From a phage, in sequence record PX104380.1: a stretch of DNA of 64,000 nt; one strand, written 5' to 3'. The notes under the pieces are model-generated. The model searched no databases. It had not been told where the DNA came from and saw only the letters and a list, made by a program, of their open reading frames with translations. The translations under genes were made by a program, and so were the position numbers. This document shows, piece by piece, positions 1,865 to 49,213 of this stretch (the stretch's first letter is position 1; every line of letters begins with the position of its first letter).

Positions 1865-3844
1865 ATGACTTTATTATCTCCGGGCATTGAGCTCAAAGAA
1901 ACTACGGTTCAAAGCACCGTGGTTAATAACTCTACTGGTACAGCAGCTTTGGCCGGTAAATTCCAGTGGGGTCCTGCTTTTCAGATTAAACAGGTTACAA
2001 ATGAAGTAGATTTAGTTAATACTTTTGGTCAACCAACCGCTGAAACTGCTGACTATTTTATGTCTGCGATGAATTTCTTGCAGTACGGAAATGACTTACG
2101 AGTAGTTCGTGCTGTTGATAGAGATACCGCTAAAAACTCATCTCCGATTGCTGGTAATATTGAATACACAATTTCTACCCCAGGTAGTAACTATGCAGTT
2201 GGAGATAAAATCACGGTCAAATATGTTTCAGATGATATTGAAACTGAAGGTAAAATTACTGAAGTAGACGCAGATGGAAAAATTAAGAAAATTAATATTC
2301 CTACTGCAAAAATTATCGCTAAAGCTAAAGAAGTTGGCGAATACCCAGCATTAGGTTCTAACTGGACTGCAGAAATTTCTTCATCTTCTTCCGGTTTAGC
2401 TGCAGTAATAACTCTTGGAAAAATTATTACTGATTCCGGTATTTTATTAGCTGAAATCGAGAGCGCTGAAACTGCTATGACAGCAGTTGATTTTCAGGCA
2501 AATCTTGAAAAATATGGAATTCCAGGAGTAGTAGCTCTCTATCCAGGCGAATTAGGCGATAAAATTGAAATTGAAATCGTATCTAAAGCTGACTATGCGA
2601 AAGGCGCTTCTGCATTACTCCCAATTTATCCAGGTGGTGGTACTCGCGCATCTACTGCCAAAGCAGTGTTTGGATATGGACCACAAACTGATTCACAGTA
2701 CGCCATTATAGTTCGTCGTAATGATGCTATTGTTCAAAGCGTTGTTCTTTCAACTAAGCGTGGTGAAAAAGATATTTACGATAGTAACATCTATATCGAT
2801 GACTTTTTCGCAAAAGGTGGTTCAGAATATATTTTTGCAACTGCACAAAACTGGCCAGAAGGCTTCTCTGGAATTTTAACTCTGTCTGGTGGATTATCAT
2901 CAAATGCTGAAGTAACAGCAGGAGATTTGATGGAAGCTTGGGACTTCTTTGCTGACCGTGAATCTGTTGACGTTCAACTGTTTATTGCGGGTTCTTGTGC
3001 TGGTGAATCTTTAGAAACAGCATCTACTGTCCAAAAACACGTCGTTTCAATTGGTGATGCTCGCCAGGATTGCTTAGTATTGTGCTCACCACCGCGTGAA
3101 ACTGTAGTTGGAATTCCTGTAACCCGTGCTGTTGATAACTTAGTCAATTGGAGAACTGCAGCAGGTTCATACACTGATAATAACTTTAATATCAGTTCAA
3201 CCTACGCAGCAATTGATGGCAACTACAAATATCAGTATGACAAATATAATGATGTGAATCGTTGGGTTCCATTAGCAGCTGATATTGCTGGTTTATGCGC
3301 AAGAACTGATAACGTATCTCAGACTTGGATGTCTCCAGCTGGTTATAATCGTGGCCAGATTCTTAACGTTATTAAACTTGCTATTGAAACTCGCCAGGCT
3401 CAGCGCGACCGTTTATATCAAGAAGCTATCAACCCGGTAACTGGTACAGGTGGTGATGGTTACGTATTGTATGGTGATAAAACAGCTACTTCTGTTCCTT
3501 CTCCATTTGATCGTATTAACGTTCGTCGTCTGTTTAATATGTTGAAAACGAATATCGGACGTAGTTCAAAATATCGTTTGTTCGAATTAAACAATGCGTT
3601 TACTCGTTCTTCATTCCGTACAGAAACTGCTCAGTACTTGCAAGGAATTAAAGCTCTTGGCGGAATTTATGAATATCGTGTAGTTTGCGATACAACAAAT
3701 AACACTCCGTCAGTAATTGATAGAAATGAGTTTGTTGCAACATTCTACATCCAACCGGCGCGCAGTATAAATTATATCCAACTTAATTTCGTCGCAACTG
3801 CTACTGGCGCAGACTTCGATGAGTTAACTGGACTTGCAGGTTAA
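1865..3844 (+). CDS. 18: tail sheath protein gp18
   Basis: 659-aa ORF with ATG and SD; size and position as in T4. Confidence 0.95.
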   Translation: MTLLSPGIELKETTVQSTVVNNSTGTAALAGKFQWGPAFQIKQVTNEVDLVNTFGQPTAETADYFMSAMNFLQYGNDLRVVRAVDRDTAKNSSPIAGNIEYTISTPGSNYAVGDKITVKYVSDDIETEGKITEVDADGKIKKINIPTAKIIAKAKEVGEYPALGSNWTAEISSSSSGLAAVITLGKIITDSGILLAEIESAETAMTAVDFQANLEKYGIPGVVALYPGELGDKIEIEIVSKADYAKGASALLPIYPGGGTRASTAKAVFGYGPQTDSQYAIIVRRNDAIVQSVVLSTKRGEKDIYDSNIYIDDFFAKGGSEYIFATAQNWPEGFSGILTLSGGLSSNAEVTAGDLMEAWDFFADRESVDVQLFIAGSCAGESLETASTVQKHVVSIGDARQDCLVLCSPPRETVVGIPVTRAVDNLVNWRTAAGSYTDNNFNISSTYAAIDGNYKYQYDKYNDVNRWVPLAADIAGLCARTDNVSQTWMSPAGYNRGQILNVIKLAIETRQAQRDRLYQEAINPVTGTGGDGYVLYGDKTATSVPSPFDRINVRRLFNMLKTNIGRSSKYRLFELNNAFTRSSFRTETAQYLQGIKALGGIYEYRVVCDTTNNTPSVIDRNEFVATFYIQPARSINYIQLNFVATATGADFDELTGLAG

Positions 3845-3850
3845 TTGATT

Positions 3851-4489
3851 ATGGGGCTTCGGCCCCTATTCTCGAGGAAACAAGTGATTATTTCTAAGTT
3901 TGTTACAATAAAACCAAGAAATCATTCAAAAATGTGGTCGACAATTCTGGGATATAAAGTATCATATCATGATACAGTATCTGTTCCAATAGAATTAATG
4001 CCAAAGAATAGTAATAAAATAGTTGACGCTAAATGTGATTTGTGTGGTACTAAATTTAGTAGAAGCATTCAGCTTTTAAATAGAACACCCACACATGCAT
4101 GTAGAAAATGTAGCATTAAACAAGTTGCTATTAAAAATTCGGAAGTTCAATCTGGAATAAGCAGACCATGGCAAAGAGGCGATAAACATCCTCGATGGAC
4201 TGGTAAAAGAAAAGAGTTTGCATTATATGCTAGTAGAGTTCATTCTATAACTAAGTCAGCTAAAATAAGAAAAATTTGGTCAAAATGGCCAAATGCTGAT
4301 AAAATAGGAGTGTGTGGCGTAGAAGGTGCTTACCAACTCGATCATAAAGTATCTATCAAATATGGATTTGATAATTTAATTCCGCCGGAAATTATAGCAA
4401 GCGTAAAAAATTTAGAAATAATCACTTGGGAATCTAACCGAGAAAAATCAAAAAGAAATAGTGTAGATCTTTGGGATTTACTAGAATGA
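3851..4489 (+). CDS. free-standing HNH homing endonuclease inserted between genes 18 and 19
   Basis: frame open from TTG 3845 immediately after gp18 stop; in-frame ATGs at 3851 and 3932 (true start uncertain); CxxC...CxxC zinc-finger-like pairs and C-terminal HNH-like motif DHKVS..G..N..N; no gene here in T4 as I recall. Confidence 0.6.
   Translation: MGLRPLFSRKQVIISKFVTIKPRNHSKMWSTILGYKVSYHDTVSVPIELMPKNSNKIVDAKCDLCGTKFSRSIQLLNRTPTHACRKCSIKQVAIKNSEVQSGISRPWQRGDKHPRWTGKRKEFALYASRVHSITKSAKIRKIWSKWPNADKIGVCGVEGAYQLDHKVSIKYGFDNLIPPEIIASVKNLEIITWESNREKSKRNSVDLWDLLE
3853..3866 (+). other. RNA hairpin GGGGC-UUCG-GCCCC directly 3' of gene 18, embedding the ATG at 3851
   Basis: perfect 5-bp GC stem with UUCG tetraloop read from sequence; no U-run after it. 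Confidence 0.5.
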
Positions 4490-4515
4490 TTCTAAAGGCC
4501 TGTTTCGGCAGGCCA

Positions 4516-4523
4516 TATAAATA
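4516..4523 (+). promoter_or_regulatory. late promoter TATAAATA (distal copy), preceded by hairpin 4497-4514
   Basis: GGCCTG-N6-CAGGCC hairpin followed by ATATAAATAC. Confidence 0.45.
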
Positions 4524-4574
4524 CACTATATCCTTAATTCTTTAATTCTATATGCCCTAGGTTAAACATAGGGA

Positions 4575-4582
4575 TATAAATA
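4575..4582 (+). promoter_or_regulatory. late promoter TATAAATA for gene 19, preceded by hairpin 4555-4573
   Basis: CCCTA-N9-TAGGG hairpin followed by ATATAAATAC; 14 nt upstream of ATG 4597 with SD AGAGG. Confidence 0.55.
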
Positions 4583-4596
4583 CTACAGAGGCTAAT

Positions 4597-5088
4597 ATGT
4601 TTGTAGATGATGTAACACGAGCGTTTGAATCTGGTGATTTTGCTCGACCTAACTTATTCCAAGTAGAAATTTCTTATCTTGGACAAAATTTTACGTTCCA
4701 ATGTAAAGCCACTGCTTTACCAGCTGGTATTGTAGAAAAAATTCCAGTCGGATTTATGAACCGTAAAATTAACGTGGCAGGCGATCGTACATTCGATGAC
4801 TGGACTGTTACAGTAATGAACGATGAAGCTCATGATGCTCGCCAGAAGTTTGTTGATTGGCAAAGCATTGCTGCTGGTCAAGGAAACGAAATTACTGGTG
4901 GAAAACCTGCAGAGTATAAAAAGAGCGCTATTGTTCGTCAATATGCTCGTGATGCTAAAACAGTAACAAAAGAAATTGAAATTAAAGGTCTGTGGCCTAC
5001 TAACGTGGGTGAACTTCAATTAGATTGGGATTCAAACAATGAAATCCAAACCTTTGAAGTAACTCTTGCTCTCGATTATTGGGAATAA
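4597..5088 (+). CDS. 19: tail tube protein gp19
   Basis: 163-aa ORF, ATG with SD; T4 size and position. Confidence 0.95.
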   Translation: MFVDDVTRAFESGDFARPNLFQVEISYLGQNFTFQCKATALPAGIVEKIPVGFMNRKINVAGDRTFDDWTVTVMNDEAHDARQKFVDWQSIAAGQGNEITGGKPAEYKKSAIVRQYARDAKTVTKEIEIKGLWPTNVGELQLDWDSNNEIQTFEVTLALDYWE

Positions 5089-5093
5089 AATGA

Positions 5094-5111
5094 ATGGGGA
5101 GAAATCCCCAT
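5094..5111 (+). other. hairpin ATGGGGA-GAAA-TCCCCAT 3' of gene 19
   Basis: 7-bp stem with GAAA loop; no clear U-run, so a terminator role is uncertain. Confidence 0.4.
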
Positions 5112-5120
5112 CCTGCTTAA

Positions 5121-6745
<1,625 letters not shown>

Positions 6746-42099: not shown

Positions 42100-43687
<1,588 letters not shown>

Positions 43688-43690
43688 AAT

Positions 43691-43711
43691 AAAATGGGCC
43701 TTGCGGCCCAC
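43691..43711 (-). terminator. hairpin UGGGCC-GCAA-GGCCCA plus U-run, 3' of nrdB
   Basis: 6-bp stem, GNRA loop, followed by UUUUAUU on minus strand. Confidence 0.55.
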
Positions 43712-43714
43712 TCC

Positions 43715-44893
43715 TTAAAAATATTTTTTAAAACTCATCATAACTTTATCATCAACATCATTATCAATCTGTGCAACAAGATAAGATGACAGTTCTACTT
43801 CTTGCGGCGCGGATTGAACATTATCAGAATTAAGGTATTCACGAATCCAAGGATATGGATGTTTAACCGGAGCATCGGTAATTGGACATGGAAGACCGCA
43901 CTGTTTCATACGAGATACAGTTAAGTAATCAATAAAGCTCCACATGCTATTTGTATTTAATCCAGGAACATCGCCATCTTTAAATAAATGAACTGCCCAA
44001 TCTTTTTCTTGGCGGTTAACTTCCATGAAAATATCAACTGCTTCTTGTTCACACTCTTGAGCAATTTTAACCCATTCATCACCATCAGTGCCAAGCTGAA
44101 GTTGACGAATAATATATTGAGTGCCTTTAAGGTGAAGTTGTTCATCACGTGCAATGAACTTCATAATCTTGGCATTACCTTCCATGATTTCCATGTTCTT
44201 ATGGAAGTTAAAGGTACATGCGAAAGATACATAAAAACGAATAGCTTCAAGGGCATTAATAACATGCAGACACAGATAAAGCGACTTCATTAGCTCACGC
44301 TTCCAATATGTCTCATGCTCAATAGCATCTTCAATAACGTCTTCGTCTGCATTAATTTCTTTTTGGTATTCGATATCAGCTTTAGCGTTTTCCCAATAAC
44401 GAGTTTTAATCAGAACGTCATCATAATAACGTCCAATGGATTCAGCGCGTTTCATAATAGCTTCATCTAATACAATCTCATCAAATACCTTTGACGGATC
44501 AGTATAAAGATTTCGCATAATATGAGTGTATGAACGACTGTGAATAGTTTCACTAAAAGTCCATGTAGCAACCCATGTATCAAGACTTGGGTCTGAAATT
44601 AATGACATAAGTACAGCAGATGGCGCACGACCCTGAATGCTATCCAAAAGTGATTGATACTTCAGGTTGTTAGTAAAAATATTTTGCTGGTACTGAGGAA
44701 GCTTATTAAACTGTGCAGCATCCATCATTAAGTTTACTTCTTCAGGACGCCAAAAAAATGATAAAGATTTCTCAATAAGTTCTTCAAATACTCTATGTCG
44801 TTGAATATCATATCGAGCTAAACCCAATCCAGAACCAAAAAACATCGGCTCAGTCAAAATATTAACAGGGGATGTATTAAAAACTGTACTCAT
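43715..44893 (-). CDS. nrdB: ribonucleotide reductase small subunit (intron-less)
   Basis: 392 aa uninterrupted; diiron-site segments present; SD AAGGA. Confidence 0.95.
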   Translation of the reverse strand: MSTVFNTSPVNILTEPMFFGSGLGLARYDIQRHRVFEELIEKSLSFFWRPEEVNLMMDAAQFNKLPQYQQNIFTNNLKYQSLLDSIQGRAPSAVLMSLISDPSLDTWVATWTFSETIHSRSYTHIMRNLYTDPSKVFDEIVLDEAIMKRAESIGRYYDDVLIKTRYWENAKADIEYQKEINADEDVIEDAIEHETYWKRELMKSLYLCLHVINALEAIRFYVSFACTFNFHKNMEIMEGNAKIMKFIARDEQLHLKGTQYIIRQLQLGTDGDEWVKIAQECEQEAVDIFMEVNRQEKDWAVHLFKDGDVPGLNTNSMWSFIDYLTVSRMKQCGLPCPITDAPVKHPYPWIREYLNSDNVQSAPQEVELSSYLVAQIDNDVDDKVMMSFKKYF

Positions 44894-45531
44894 TTAGAAT
44901 CCTTAAATTTACATTTATCATAATGCCATCTTAAAGCATTGCCTTTATTAACTTTCTTGCCACAATGCGGACAAGGCGGATACTCTGTACCTTGCTTAGT
45001 TCTCAAAGAAATCAAATCACGGGTTTCTTTAGTATGAGGAACATCTCTTGTCGGAGAAATTGTACCATACATCGGATTAAGCACGCCGACTTTAGCAGCA
45101 GCTATATTCTTTTTAGCTTCTTCGGTTTTAGGTTTTCTCATGCGAGCTAAATGCTCTTTGGTAAATTTCCTTCCTTTAAGAGCTCTACTTATCTTTTCTC
45201 TGGTTTCCATAGAAACTTCACGTCCTATAGCAGCTTCAGATAAACGTCGTCTACCTAATTCGTACAGTTGAGAAGAAATTTTATATGAGCGATTTTTACC
45301 AGTCAAGCACATTAAACCAAAAGCTTTCTTTAATCCTGGGGTGTCATATATTTTACATAAAAGCCAATGAGCTATAAAATGCTCTCTACCTGTTAATTCA
45401 ACTAAATTTTCTTTATCATCAGAACCTCCCATGCATTTAGGGACTATATGATGTGTCTCTTTATATTCGGATAAAGGTTCCCGAGCCTGAGCTCGGGAAA
45501 TTAGGTCATTATAGATTTTTTGATAATTCAT
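44890..45531 (-). CDS. mobE: free-standing HNH homing endonuclease MobE
   Basis: 213 aa between nrdA and nrdB, the T4 mobE position; HNH motif ETHHIVPKCMGGSDDKENLVELTGREHFIAH; TAATG overlap with nrdA, ATGA overlap with nrdB. Confidence 0.8.
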   Translation of the reverse strand: MNYQKIYNDLISRAQAREPLSEYKETHHIVPKCMGGSDDKENLVELTGREHFIAHWLLCKIYDTPGLKKAFGLMCLTGKNRSYKISSQLYELGRRRLSEAAIGREVSMETREKISRALKGRKFTKEHLARMRKPKTEEAKKNIAAAKVGVLNPMYGTISPTRDVPHTKETRDLISLRTKQGTEYPPCPHCGKKVNKGNALRWHYDKCKFKDSK

Positions 45532-47795
45532 TACAATTTACACGCTGCACAATCGTCGGCTTTAGGAGTTTCTATTTCATAATCATCAGTACCAGAACCA
45601 TCACGGGTATTATGATAATAGAAATTTTTAATGCCATAATACCATCCGTATAACATGTCATCAATCATTATTGACATTGGAACCTTTCCTTTTGGAAAAA
45701 TCTGCGGGTCATAGTATGTATTCGCCGAAGCTGATTGACAAACCCATTTCAGCATAATAGCTACCTGCGTAAGATAAGGTTTATTACCTTTCTTAGCTAA
45801 TTTCCATGTATAATCATAGAGGTCTATGTTATGCTCAATATTGGGCACGACTTGATTAAAGGAGCCCTCTTTTGATTCTTTAACAGAGACTGGTCCACGT
45901 GGAGGCTCGATACCGTTTGTACTGTTAGAAACTTGGGAAGATGACTCACATGGCATAAGTGCTGATAATGTGCTATTACGGATGCCAAAGAGCTTAAGGT
46001 CTTCCCGCAGCGACGACCAGTCACAAACGTATTTTGGAGCTGCGATTTGGTCAATCTTTTTATTGTACCAGTCGATAGGTAATTCGCCTCGAGACCAACG
46101 AGTGTCTGAATAATATTCGCAAGGTCCTTTTTCTTTGGCGAGTTTAATGGATGCTTTAATGAGTCCATACTGTAATCTCTCAAATAGTTCATGTGTTAAA
46201 TCGTTAGCATCTTCATAAGAAGCAAAGTTACTTGCCAGCCAAGCTGCATAGTTAGTAACACCTACACCGAGGTTACGACGCTTTTTAGCTTTTTCTGCTT
46301 CAGGAACTGGATATCCTTGGTAATCCAAAAGATTATCAAGAGCACGAACTTGAACTTCTGCCAATTCATTAATTTTATCTTGGTCTTGCCAATCGAAGTT
46401 ATCCAGCACAAATGCAGATAACGTGCACAATCCAATTTCAGCATCGGGGCTATTCACATCATTTGTTGGAATAGCAATTTCACAGCACAAGTTACTCTGA
46501 CGAATAGGTGCCTTTTCACGAATAAACGGAGTATAGTTATTCGTATTATCAATGAACTGTACATAAATCCTTGCTGTTCCTGAGCGTTCAGTCATGAGCA
46601 ATTCAAATAGTTCACGAGCTTTAATACGCTTTTTACGAATATTAGGGTCTTTTTCTGCTGCTTCGTATAATTCACGGAAACGGTCTTGGTCTTTAAAATA
46701 AGAATAATAAAGCTCTCCACCCATTTCATGCGGACTGAACAAAGTAATGTAGTCGTTCTTTCCAAAACGTTCCATCATTAGGTCATTCAGCTGGACGCCA
46801 TAATCCATATGACGGATACGGTTTTCTTCTACACCTTTGTTATTTTTCAAAACGAGAAGATTTTCAACTTCCAAATGCCAAATAGGATAATAAGCAGTAG
46901 CAGCGCCGCCACGAATTCCACCCTGTGAGCATGATTTAACAGCAGTCTGAAAATGTTTCCAAAAAGGAATAACACCAGTATGACGCACTTCACCCATGCC
47001 AATCTTAGAACCTTCGGCACGAATCATACCAACGTTAATACCAATTCCAGCACGTTTGGAGATATATTCAACAATTGAAGCGGAAGCCTTATTGATAGAC
47101 TTTAATGAATCACCTGCCTCAATAACAACACATGAACTAAACTGCCGAGTCGGAGTACGGCAACCAGCCATAATAGGAGTTGGTAATGAAATCTGTCGAG
47201 TAGATACTGCTTCATAAAAACGAATAACATGTTTTAATCTATCAACAGGTTCATCTTGATGCAATGCCATTCCAATAGTCATAAATGCAAACTGAGGAGT
47301 TTCATAAATTTGACCAGTGGTTTTATCTTTAACTAAATATTTTTCTTTTAATTGCATCGCCCCGGAATAAGTAAATTCCATATCCCGCTCGTGCTTAATT
47401 TTTGATTCTAAAAATGTAATTTCTTCTGCTGAATATTTTGACAATAATTCAGGGTCATATTTACCTTCATTTACACAGTAAGAAATATGGTCAATAAATG
47501 AACGCGGTTCATACTGCCCATAAACATGCTTACGAAGAGCGAACATTAGACAACGTGCAGCTACATATTGATAATCAGGCTCTTCAACCGAAATAGAATT
47601 CGCAGCGGCCTTAATGACAATAGTCTGAATATCATCAGTTGTCATTCCATCACGGAGATAAGATTTAATATTTTCATATAATTCATAAGGATCTACTGAT
47701 GTTCCCTCAGCTGCCCAAGATAAAACTTTAATAATTTTTTGTGGGTCAAAGCTCTGAGAAACACCACTACTTTTGATAACATTAATTAATTGCAT
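45531..47795 (-). CDS. nrdA: ribonucleotide reductase large subunit
   Basis: 754 aa; active-site motif SNLCCEIAIP; SD GAGGA. Confidence 0.97.
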   Translation of the reverse strand: MQLINVIKSSGVSQSFDPQKIIKVLSWAAEGTSVDPYELYENIKSYLRDGMTTDDIQTIVIKAAANSISVEEPDYQYVAARCLMFALRKHVYGQYEPRSFIDHISYCVNEGKYDPELLSKYSAEEITFLESKIKHERDMEFTYSGAMQLKEKYLVKDKTTGQIYETPQFAFMTIGMALHQDEPVDRLKHVIRFYEAVSTRQISLPTPIMAGCRTPTRQFSSCVVIEAGDSLKSINKASASIVEYISKRAGIGINVGMIRAEGSKIGMGEVRHTGVIPFWKHFQTAVKSCSQGGIRGGAATAYYPIWHLEVENLLVLKNNKGVEENRIRHMDYGVQLNDLMMERFGKNDYITLFSPHEMGGELYYSYFKDQDRFRELYEAAEKDPNIRKKRIKARELFELLMTERSGTARIYVQFIDNTNNYTPFIREKAPIRQSNLCCEIAIPTNDVNSPDAEIGLCTLSAFVLDNFDWQDQDKINELAEVQVRALDNLLDYQGYPVPEAEKAKKRRNLGVGVTNYAAWLASNFASYEDANDLTHELFERLQYGLIKASIKLAKEKGPCEYYSDTRWSRGELPIDWYNKKIDQIAAPKYVCDWSSLREDLKLFGIRNSTLSALMPCESSSQVSNSTNGIEPPRGPVSVKESKEGSFNQVVPNIEHNIDLYDYTWKLAKKGNKPYLTQVAIMLKWVCQSASANTYYDPQIFPKGKVPMSIMIDDMLYGWYYGIKNFYYHNTRDGSGTDDYEIETPKADDCAACKL

Positions 47796-48352: not shown

Positions 48353-49213
48353 TTATACTGCCATTTTTCCTTTAATTGGCGGGTGAGATACATAGTCGTT
48401 AAGAACAAAATTATGCGGCTTTGCGAATTGACTCAACCAAAATACCTGCGATTCTGTATCCCATTCATCAAATTCATCTGGAAATTTTAATTGTAATTCG
48501 CATAAATCCATAGGTTCACGACGCAAAATTTCTTTACATTGTTCTACGTGATTCATATAGATATGAGTATTACCACCAGAAAATATCAAATCTCCCGGAA
48601 TAAGATTACACATCTTAGCTACAATATGAACTAACGTAGCATATGATGCAATATTAAATGGAAGACCGAGGAAAACATCTACCGAACGTTGATACCACTG
48701 AAGGTCAAGGTATCCATTACGAACATTAAATTGATAGAACATATGACAAGGTGGTAATGCCATCTGCTTGAGTTCAGCTGGATTCCATGCTGAAACAATT
48801 TGACGCCTATCATTTGGCAGTTTTTTAATACGATCAATAACTTCTATAATTTGGTCTACACCACCAAAATCACGCCACTGTTTTCCATAAATTGGACCAA
48901 GTTCACCGCTATGGTATCCTAAATCTTTTGCTTGATTTTCGTAATTTTCATCCCAAACTGTTTTGCCTTGGATTAACGAATCATGTTGAATTAATCGCAA
49001 ATCATTGACATTTGTGCTTCCCGATAAAAACCATATTAACTCAGCAATGCAAGCTTTCCAGGCGAGCTTTTTAGTTGTTACTGCAGGAAAACCTTTAGTT
49101 AAATCCCAGCGTAATTTAGTACCGAACAAAGCAATTGTTCCTGTGCCTGTTCGGTCATCGGTTTCATAACCATTTTCAAAAATGTCTTTAATTAAATCTT
49201 GGTATTGTTTCAT
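48353..49213 (-). CDS. td: thymidylate synthase (intron-less)
   Basis: 286 aa uninterrupted; active-site motif PPCHMFYQF; SD AGGTG. Confidence 0.95.
   Translation of the reverse strand: MKQYQDLIKDIFENGYETDDRTGTGTIALFGTKLRWDLTKGFPAVTTKKLAWKACIAELIWFLSGSTNVNDLRLIQHDSLIQGKTVWDENYENQAKDLGYHSGELGPIYGKQWRDFGGVDQIIEVIDRIKKLPNDRRQIVSAWNPAELKQMALPPCHMFYQFNVRNGYLDLQWYQRSVDVFLGLPFNIASYATLVHIVAKMCNLIPGDLIFSGGNTHIYMNHVEQCKEILRREPMDLCELQLKFPDEFDEWDTESQVFWLSQFAKPHNFVLNDYVSHPPIKGKMAV

Follow-up and report, generated by a model that had tools for sequence, protein, structure and literature searches.

Two mobile elements of T-even phages represent the closest described systems for the locus studied here, i.e., the free-standing homing endonuclease gene mobE, located between nrdA and nrdB in T4, and the group I intron of nrdB with its endonuclease I-TevIII. 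In T4 × T2 crosses, mobE is inherited super-Mendelianly, and an HNH deletion in T4 mobE eliminates the strand-specific nicking of T2 nrdB at nt 122-126 (PMC2790892). Nicking by T4 MobE has been observed in vivo only, never in vitro, and the authors left an indirect role possible; they also proposed that polymorphisms at nt 114-131 of nrdB protect the carrier genome, and located the recombination point in mobE-positive progeny within the first 189 nt of nrdB (PMC2790892). I-TevIII cuts 14/16 bp upstream of where the intron is inserted, and its CX2CX12-13HX3C fingers bind zinc and DNA (PMC1865063). T2 and T6 are both without the nrdB intron (PMC1865063). The mobE entries of T6 and LZ7 were used by Wilson & Edgell 2009 (PMC2790892), who compared T6, LZ7, RB15 and other T-even sequences with and without mobE (Methods, Figures 4 and 8).

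The window, i.e., the whole 64,000-nt stretch of phage DNA analyzed here (PX104380.1), represents Tequatrovirus (T4-like coliphage) DNA, and all genes of its nrdA-nrdB region are located on the minus strand according to the ORF list (Table 1). Annotated Tequatrovirus genomes match a 4.5-kb block collinearly, with identity of up to 97.5%, and nrdA, mobE and nrdB can thus be considered real genes rather than chance ORFs; nrdA is collinear with the annotated nrdA of T4, T6 and KarlGJung. Over 24 kb, the best identity to any record in the phage collection was ~96%, indicating an ordinary mosaic T4-like phage and no copy of a listed genome. An earlier note on this DNA had described an intact HNH gene between nrdA and nrdB that is tightly coupled to both neighbors, which the ORF list and the raw sequence bear out. 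At the nrdA/mobE junction, plus-strand positions 45529-45533 read CATTA (TAATG on the coding strand), so that one base belongs to both the nrdA stop and the mobE start; at the mobE/nrdB junction, plus-strand positions 44890-44893 read TCAT (i.e., ATGA), and the nrdB ATG overlaps the mobE TGA. The uninterrupted nrdB ORF matched Pfam Ribonuc_red_sm with 126.4 bits, and the FFWRPEE radical-transfer region is conserved. Sandegren et al. reportedly surveyed mobE in T-even phages in 2005.

Table 1. Features in the window's nrdA-nrdB region (positions are those of the 64,000-nt stretch)
Feature	Position	Strand	Basis
nrdA, class Ia ribonucleotide reductase large subunit, 754 aa	45531..47795	-	Pfam ATP-cone, Ribonuc_red_lgN, lgC
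mobE, T6-type allele, free-standing HNH homing endonuclease gene, 213 codons, intact	44890..45531	-	
Stem-loop in mobE 5' end, 9-bp stem, 4-nt loop, -16.7 kcal/mol	45478..45499	-	fold, z -2.8
HNH catalytic motif region, MobE residues 24-55, KETHHIVPKCMGGSDDKENLVELTGREHFIAH	45367..45462	-	Pfam HNH residues 21-44
Best-scoring NUMOD3 repeat, MobE residues 103-121	45169..45225	-	Pfam
C-terminal zinc-finger-like motif, C187-x2-C190-x12-H203-x3-C207	44911..44973	-	read from translation
TGCTTTA, MotA-box-like, mobE 3' end, 39 nt upstream of nrdB ATG	44932..44938	-	pattern search
nrdB, class Ia ribonucleotide reductase small subunit, single unbroken ORF of 392 codons	43715..44893	-	
First 200 nt of nrdB, tract co-inherited with mobE allele	44694..44893	-	sequence comparison
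nrdB nt 114-131, equivalent of polymorphic MobE nicking region	44763..44780	-	
Empty intron insertion site and I-TevIII homing-site equivalent	44190..44250	-	alignment; cleavage positions from PMC1865063
denA (endonuclease II, GIY-YIG by Pfam), downstream neighbor as in T4	43277..43711	-	
rnlA	42100..43260	-	

T6 (MH550421, AP018814, AY262134) shares with the window the gene order nrdA-mobE-nrdB-denA, a 213-codon mobE, the TAATG and ATGA junctions, and an intron-less nrdB with identical nt 1-200, including the codons for Lys-Ser-Leu discussed below; the two MobE proteins show 98.6% amino acid identity over all 213 aa. Differences from T6 include the length of nrdB (388 codons in T6 versus 392 in the window), a T4-like patch at nt ~500-600 of T6 nrdB where the window carries a KarlGJung/Aplg8-like patch (83% identical to T2), and the td intron with I-TevI, which is present in T6 and missing from the window. 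Compared to T4, the window shows the same mobE insertion site, UAAUG coupling and hairpin, and the nrdB promoter region embedded in mobE is common to both. The relationship between the two proteins is modular: the N-terminal 54 aa (the HNH module) and the C-terminal 83 aa (containing the zinc-finger motif) are nearly identical, while codons ~55-130 differ from the T4 allele, although this divergent center can still be aligned. T4 MobE, which comprises 232 aa in resequenced genomes, also has one more NUMOD3-like repeat than the window protein. On sequence comparison, the gene between nrdA and nrdB in the window is a T6-type allele of mobE; the earlier note was right in placing an HNH gene at the T4 mobE position, whereas full collinearity with T4 mobE does not hold, as codons ~55-130 are those of the T6-type allele. 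Moreover, T4 nrdB encodes Arg-Gln-Ile at codons 42-44 and carries a 598-nt intron with a defunct I-TevIII, neither of which is found in the window.

The T4 reference (AF158101/NC_000866) annotates a 141-aa mobE followed by a separate 83-aa nrdB.1. This split arises from two extra single nucleotides; in the resequenced T4 genome MT984581, as well as in ECO4 and ELT1, mobE is a single 232-codon ORF, and a truncated 141-aa T4 mobE plus nrdB.1 was thus rejected by comparison with resequenced T4.

The mobE genes of RB3, SH7, SF2-1, bov9_1 and Aplg8 (RB3-type) occupy the same site as the window gene and share its first ~55 residues (HNH module and hairpin). Their C-terminal 190 residues, on the other hand, are unrelated and lack the CX2CX12HX3C finger, and the nrdB genes of these carriers mostly encode a T2-like Lys-Gln-Leu, unlike the window. 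These differences suggest that RB3-type mobE may have another target or another mode of protection. I-TevIII of RB3 resembles the window MobE in belonging to the HNH family, in the CX2CX12-13HX3C pattern of its zinc finger, and in having nrdB as its target, but it is intron-encoded, acts as a dimer and makes its cut as a double-strand break (PMC1865063).

Searches with the 213-aa window protein supported its assignment to the HNH homing endonucleases, with Pfam matches to HNH (23.1 bits; cutoff 21.4) and NUMOD3 (35.9 bits) and a match to the homing endonuclease family phrog_655 (E 1.7e-66). The region containing H27/H28, N42 and H51/H55 is conserved in all alleles compared. A PDB sequence search with MobE found no significant relative; the HNH motif aligned with that of a group II intron maturase at E 0.1, which is suggestive at most, and I-HmuI was not among the matches, the I-HmuI-like two-domain architecture of MobE being taken from the literature. 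The NUMOD3 repeat is located in the variable central linker/DNA-binding region (residues ~55-130), which differs among T6-type, T4-type and RB3-type alleles. The C-terminal motif showed local blastp similarity to residues 242-269 of RB3 I-TevIII (E 5e-4) and fits the CX2CX12-13HX3C pattern of I-TevIII-type fingers, with putative zinc binding.

All 7 T6-type alleles compared are intact 213-codon ORFs, including those of Mexia (87% nucleotide identity) and LF82-1 (74.5%), and the dN/dS ratios of T6-type alleles against the window gene ranged from 0.12 to 0.22, with dS of up to 1.1. As judged from these ratios, mobE is under purifying selection, and the possibility that the window gene is a pseudogene, which the earlier note had named as a refutation of its reading, can be dismissed. 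The HNH residues and the zinc-finger Cys and His residues are invariant across alleles, except that RB3-type alleles are without the finger.

The stem-loop in the 5' end of the window mobE is identical in sequence to that of T4 mobE, which was mapped as a weak intrinsic terminator ~27 nt after the AUG (PMC2790892). The window hairpin, a predicted terminator, corresponds to this T4 element; a generic terminator scan missed it because its U tract is short. The window gene thus displays the features of a promoterless cassette, i.e., the UAAUG overlap with nrdA and the internal hairpin, as found in T4 mobE. The last ~250 nt of the window mobE are also nearly identical to T4, and the TGCTTTA stretch in the 3' end is identical in both. 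In T4, the nrdB middle promoter has been placed within the 3' part of mobE (PMC2790892); judged by its identity with T4, the TGCTTTA stretch presumably represents the nrdB middle promoter inside the window mobE. In one IMG/VR locus (L030), the 168-nt spacer represents an internally deleted mobE in which the start region, a hairpin and the last ~90 nt are kept. This scar is in line with the proposal in the literature that retention of the mobE 3' end is due to its requirement for nrdB expression.

Alignment of the nrdB genes of the window, T4, T6 and KarlGJung placed the 598-nt T4 intron between ...TATGTATCTTTTGCGT and GTACCTTTAAC..., and the window nrdB is contiguous at ...TATGTATCTTTCGCAT|GTACCTTTAAC... 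(44218|44217). The statement in the earlier note that nrdB is without group I intron and I-TevIII thus holds exactly at this position, with the insertion site located on the T4 nrdB sequence and with no split, degenerate or remnant intron found there in the alignment. Viewed across genomes, the window nrdB is missing a ~0.6-1.1 kb insertion between ...TTTYGCRT and GTACCTTT..., the length of which is 598 nt in T4 and ~1.09 kb in RB3 and SHFML-26; I-TevIII is likewise absent from the window, according to the nrdB alignment at the insertion site. The I-TevIII homing site of the window differs from the T4 delta-intron substrate that has been tested at two positions (-2 and -5, both synonymous) and from T2 at one. 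As the homing site is nearly intact, it is plausible that an RB3-type intron with an active I-TevIII could home into the window nrdB.

We then compared the nrdB region nicked by T4 MobE among 48 loci from related phages, a small sample comprising 7 loci with T6-type mobE, 3 with T4-type mobE and 38 others. The window equivalent of the T2 nick positions (nt 122-126; PMC2790892) is 44768..44772, and codons 42-44 of the window nrdB are AAA TCT TTA (Lys-Ser-Leu) as compared to AAG CAG TTG (Lys-Gln-Leu) in T2. Lys-Ser-Leu was encoded at these codons in all 7 phages with T6-type mobE (AAA/AAG TCT ...), Arg-Gln-Ile was encoded in all 3 with T4-type mobE, and Lys-Gln-Leu was found in 36 of the 38 loci with an empty site, another occupant or RB3-type mobE, the exceptions being Aplg8 and L036. 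An exact-pattern search of IMG/VR for the Lys-Ser-Leu variant found none, which fits linkage between allele and variant. Aplg8 combines RB3-type mobE with Lys-Ser-Leu, and the link is therefore breakable; as RB3-type phages keep the T2-like "sensitive" sequence, a protective variant is also not universal among the genes called mobE.

Over its first 200 nt, the window nrdB shows 100% identity to T6 and KarlGJung and 79-83% identity to T2, and past this tract the best-matching phage changes. In extent, the tract matches the published recombination point (PMC2790892). The association between mobE allele and nick-site variant could reflect simple linkage over ~125 bp and not selection for self-protection. 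A modest addition to the 2009 picture is that every mobE allele is accompanied by a distinct version of the first ~200 nt of nrdB.

To score the nrdB intron among phages with T6-type mobE, which was found in 50 phage-collection records, we used a query spanning mobE, the 5' exon and 118 nt past the insertion site. This query listed 48 records, 43 of which were collinear across the site and thus had no intron, including T6 (MH550421, AP018814, AY262134), LZ7 (DQ178119), KarlGJung, the slur phages and the LF82 series; the remaining 5 carried the intron (e.g., SHFML-26, HY03 and vB_ECOLIGBLB0003). Absence of the nrdB intron is therefore the majority state for T6-type mobE (43/48 among the matches listed). 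In the phage collection, ~118 records were considered carriers of the nrdB intron at a query coverage of at least 80%; the 302 records that matched the T4 intron query overestimate the number of carriers, as this query held 51 nt of exon.

Among the loci fetched, T4-type, T6-type and RB3-type mobE were each found both with and without the nrdB intron. For T4-type mobE, ECO4 has no intron, ELT1 has one encoding full-length I-TevIII, and T4 itself has the intron whose I-TevIII is defunct; T6-type mobE was present without intron in the window, T6, KarlGJung, HMD-9, LF82-1 and Mexia and with an intron encoding full-length I-TevIII in SHFML-26. RB3-type mobE was found without intron in SH7, SF2-1, bov9_1 and Aplg8 and with a full-length I-TevIII intron in RB3, while T2 has an empty mobE site and no intron. 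The defunct-I-TevIII intron was not seen together with T6-type or RB3-type mobE among these loci. A NrdB query of IMG/VR provided 34 loci, which served as empty-site and other-occupant controls and did not include a T6-type mobE allele; a MobE query of IMG/VR matched distant HNH-NUMOD proteins alone (≤66% identity, N-terminal part only), with no T6-type allele among them.

Overall, mobE beside an intron-less nrdB is a known and common state and nothing new, and the genotype of the window is ordinary because its arrangement is the same as in T6 and dozens of sequenced relatives. The earlier note had concluded that persistence of MobE does not require the intron. This is true, but it is not a new lesson, given the precedent of T6 and the frequency of intron-less records reported above; such independence is expected because MobE is an autonomous element and the T4 intron its passenger.

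By homology with T4 MobE, we consider the following account of the locus probable (roughly 0.85), with a T6-type mobE occupying the nrdA-nrdB junction and the intron as an optional passenger. Lacking its own promoter, mobE would depend on the nrdA promoters for transcription and on the UAAUG coupling to nrdA for translation, with the weak intragenic hairpin terminator attenuating its expression. In a mixed infection with an empty-site phage (e.g., T2), MobE would nick nrdB near nt 122-126, and repair of the nick would transfer mobE together with ~200 nt of neighboring nrdB sequence to the recipient, while the nrdB of the carrier would presumably be protected by nick-site substitutions, in this case Gln43 to Ser (AAA TCT). 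Loss of mobE by deletion would be disfavored because the presumed middle promoter of nrdB lies in its 3' end and its stop codon is coupled to the nrdB start; the nrdB intron would ride in this region as an independent and optional passenger. For the window locus, we infer nicking activity, self-protection and promoter function from functional evidence that comes wholly from T4 MobE, the central third of which differs from that of the T6-type protein. The locus can be regarded as a textbook free-standing homing endonuclease gene, and as such it matters little.

It is very unlikely that mobE has become a domesticated or inactive resident, i.e., a gene that has lost its endonuclease action and whose ends are kept for coupling to nrdB and for the promoter. 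The promoter-like element and the ATGA coupling in its 3' end would fit such a history, as would the scar in L030, which retains both ends alone after the body of the gene was lost, and the fact that MobE activity, T4 included, was never demonstrated in vitro (PMC2790892). Purifying selection nevertheless extends over the whole ORF (dN/dS 0.12-0.22, to dS 1.1), and the HNH and zinc-finger residues are invariant across alleles, whereas a spacer kept for regulation alone would degenerate, as has happened in L030. It also appears improbable that the window nrdB formerly had an intron that was precisely lost, as opposed to never having been invaded. As SHFML-26, HY03 and vB_ECOLIGBLB0003 combine T6-type mobE with an intron that encodes full-length I-TevIII, lineages of the T6-type allele have met the intron; on the other hand, no remnant is present at the window insertion site, and the exon flank of the intron-containing T4, RB3 and SHFML-26 is TTTTGCGT|GT while that of the window is TTTCGCAT|GT, the same as in the intron-less KarlGJung and Aplg8 (T2 has TTTTGCAT|GT). 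Recombination with an intron-less allele wipes out such evidence, so that loss and lack of invasion are not rigorously separable.

The view of the earlier note that the window is an informative genotype for the independence of MobE and a natural recipient for homing experiments with T4 is doubtful. The intron is absent and mobE intact, and the I-TevIII site shows only the few differences described above, so an active I-TevIII of the type found in RB3, SHFML-26 or ELT1 could plausibly mediate homing, and for an intron with active I-TevIII the recipient claim can stand. It is not expected to hold for the MobE pathway of T4. [quoted passage not shown] A cross of T4 with the window phage is not expected to drive the intron in because T4 I-TevIII is inactive, and MobE-driven trans-homing is not expected either because the nick site is the T6-type, mobE-associated variant (Lys-Ser-Leu); as both phages would carry mobE, the recipient would also offer no empty site to convert. 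A T6-type MobE is unlikely to nick the window nrdB, and the nick-site variant and the MobE of this phage together make it a poor recipient for the MobE pathway, for which T2 is the proper one. The independence of MobE, moreover, is already documented by T6 and LZ7 (PMC1865063, PMC2790892) and by the 43 intron-less records among the 48 listed.

I-HmuI and I-HmuII compete in SPO1 and SP82, and T6-type and T4-type mobE might similarly be specificity or immunity variants of one element, possibly competing by nicking each other's nrdB, although we regard this as improbable. Lys-Ser-Leu goes with the T6-type and Arg-Gln-Ile with the T4-type allele, each allele having its own central NUMOD3 region, and Lys-Gln-Leu may, if the alleles are such variants, be the ancestral state of the nick site. 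If such competition did occur, the T4 intron could still enter the window phage through T4 MobE. For the design of experiments, a phage with mobE and a linked nick-site variant is the wrong recipient for tests of MobE trans-homing, and T2-like phages with an empty site are the right ones. The amino acid change at the nick site lies 3-5 codons before the radical-transfer tryptophan motif FFWRPEE.

As td is uninterrupted in the window, no fewer than two of T4's three introns are missing from the phage. In this respect its td resembles that of T2, which is also uninterrupted, and differs from those of T4, T6 and the closest relative, KarlGJung, all of which carry the td intron with I-TevI.

Features located in the window
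Feature	Position	Strand	Basis or remarks
td (thymidylate synthase)	48353..49213	-	uninterrupted ORF, 286 codons, 861 nt
Mosaic patch, distinct from nrdB 5' tract	44294..44393 (nrdB nt 501-600)	-	identity comparison
MobE C-terminal zinc-finger-like motif, C-x2-C-x12-H-x3-C	44911..44973	-	spacing and local similarity

The mosaic patch within nrdB showed 100% identity with KarlGJung and Aplg8 and 83% identity with T2, but only approx. 50% identity with T4, T6, ECO4 and SH7; a 12-nt length difference accounts for the size of NrdB in the window (392 aa, as compared to 388 aa). In I-TevIII (locus L038, 807-1613), the other HNH endonuclease targeting nrdB, both zinc fingers that bind DNA have the Cys/His spacing seen in the C-terminal motif of MobE, and this motif shows local similarity to these fingers (E = 5e-4).

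Two loci depart from the usual pairing of mobE allele with nick-site variant (nrdB codons 42-44). Aplg8 (L040) combines an RB3-type mobE with a T6-type nrdB 5' end (Lys-Ser-Leu). In locus L036 (IMG/VR UViG_2974742932), nrdA and nrdB are separated by a 1.6-kb insert, nrdB contains an intron, and the nick site presents an additional variant, Arg-Ser-Leu. In another IMG/VR locus, L030 (UViG_2974546015), which has the T2-like nick site Lys-Gln-Leu, the 168-nt nrdA-nrdB spacer (3330-3500) consists of an internally deleted mobE that retains ATGAATTATCAAAAAA, a GC-rich hairpin and the final ~90 nt of the gene through the ATGA overlap. This spacer is a scar left by loss of the endonuclease, with the regulatory ends preserved.

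The T4 reference genome (L001, AF158101, 3700-4400) divides mobE in two, giving a 141-aa mobE and an 83-aa nrdB.1. As resequenced T4 (L044, MT984581, 2501-3199), ECO4 and ELT1 all contain a single 232-codon mobE ORF, and as the split could be traced to two extra single nucleotides in AF158101 as compared to MT984581 (i.e., one within an A run and a C), nrdB.1 is likely to be an artefact of that reference. The SHFML-26 record (L039, 3642-5906) presents nrdA as two adjoining CDS (3642..4835 and 4836..5906), a division that could represent a frameshift or a sequencing error. Klebsiella phage Mexia (L125) carries an intact T6-type mobE with 213 codons (2601-3242), of which the record annotates only 138 aa. 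In the same phage, an additional homing endonuclease gene (407-1021) separates denA from rnlA.
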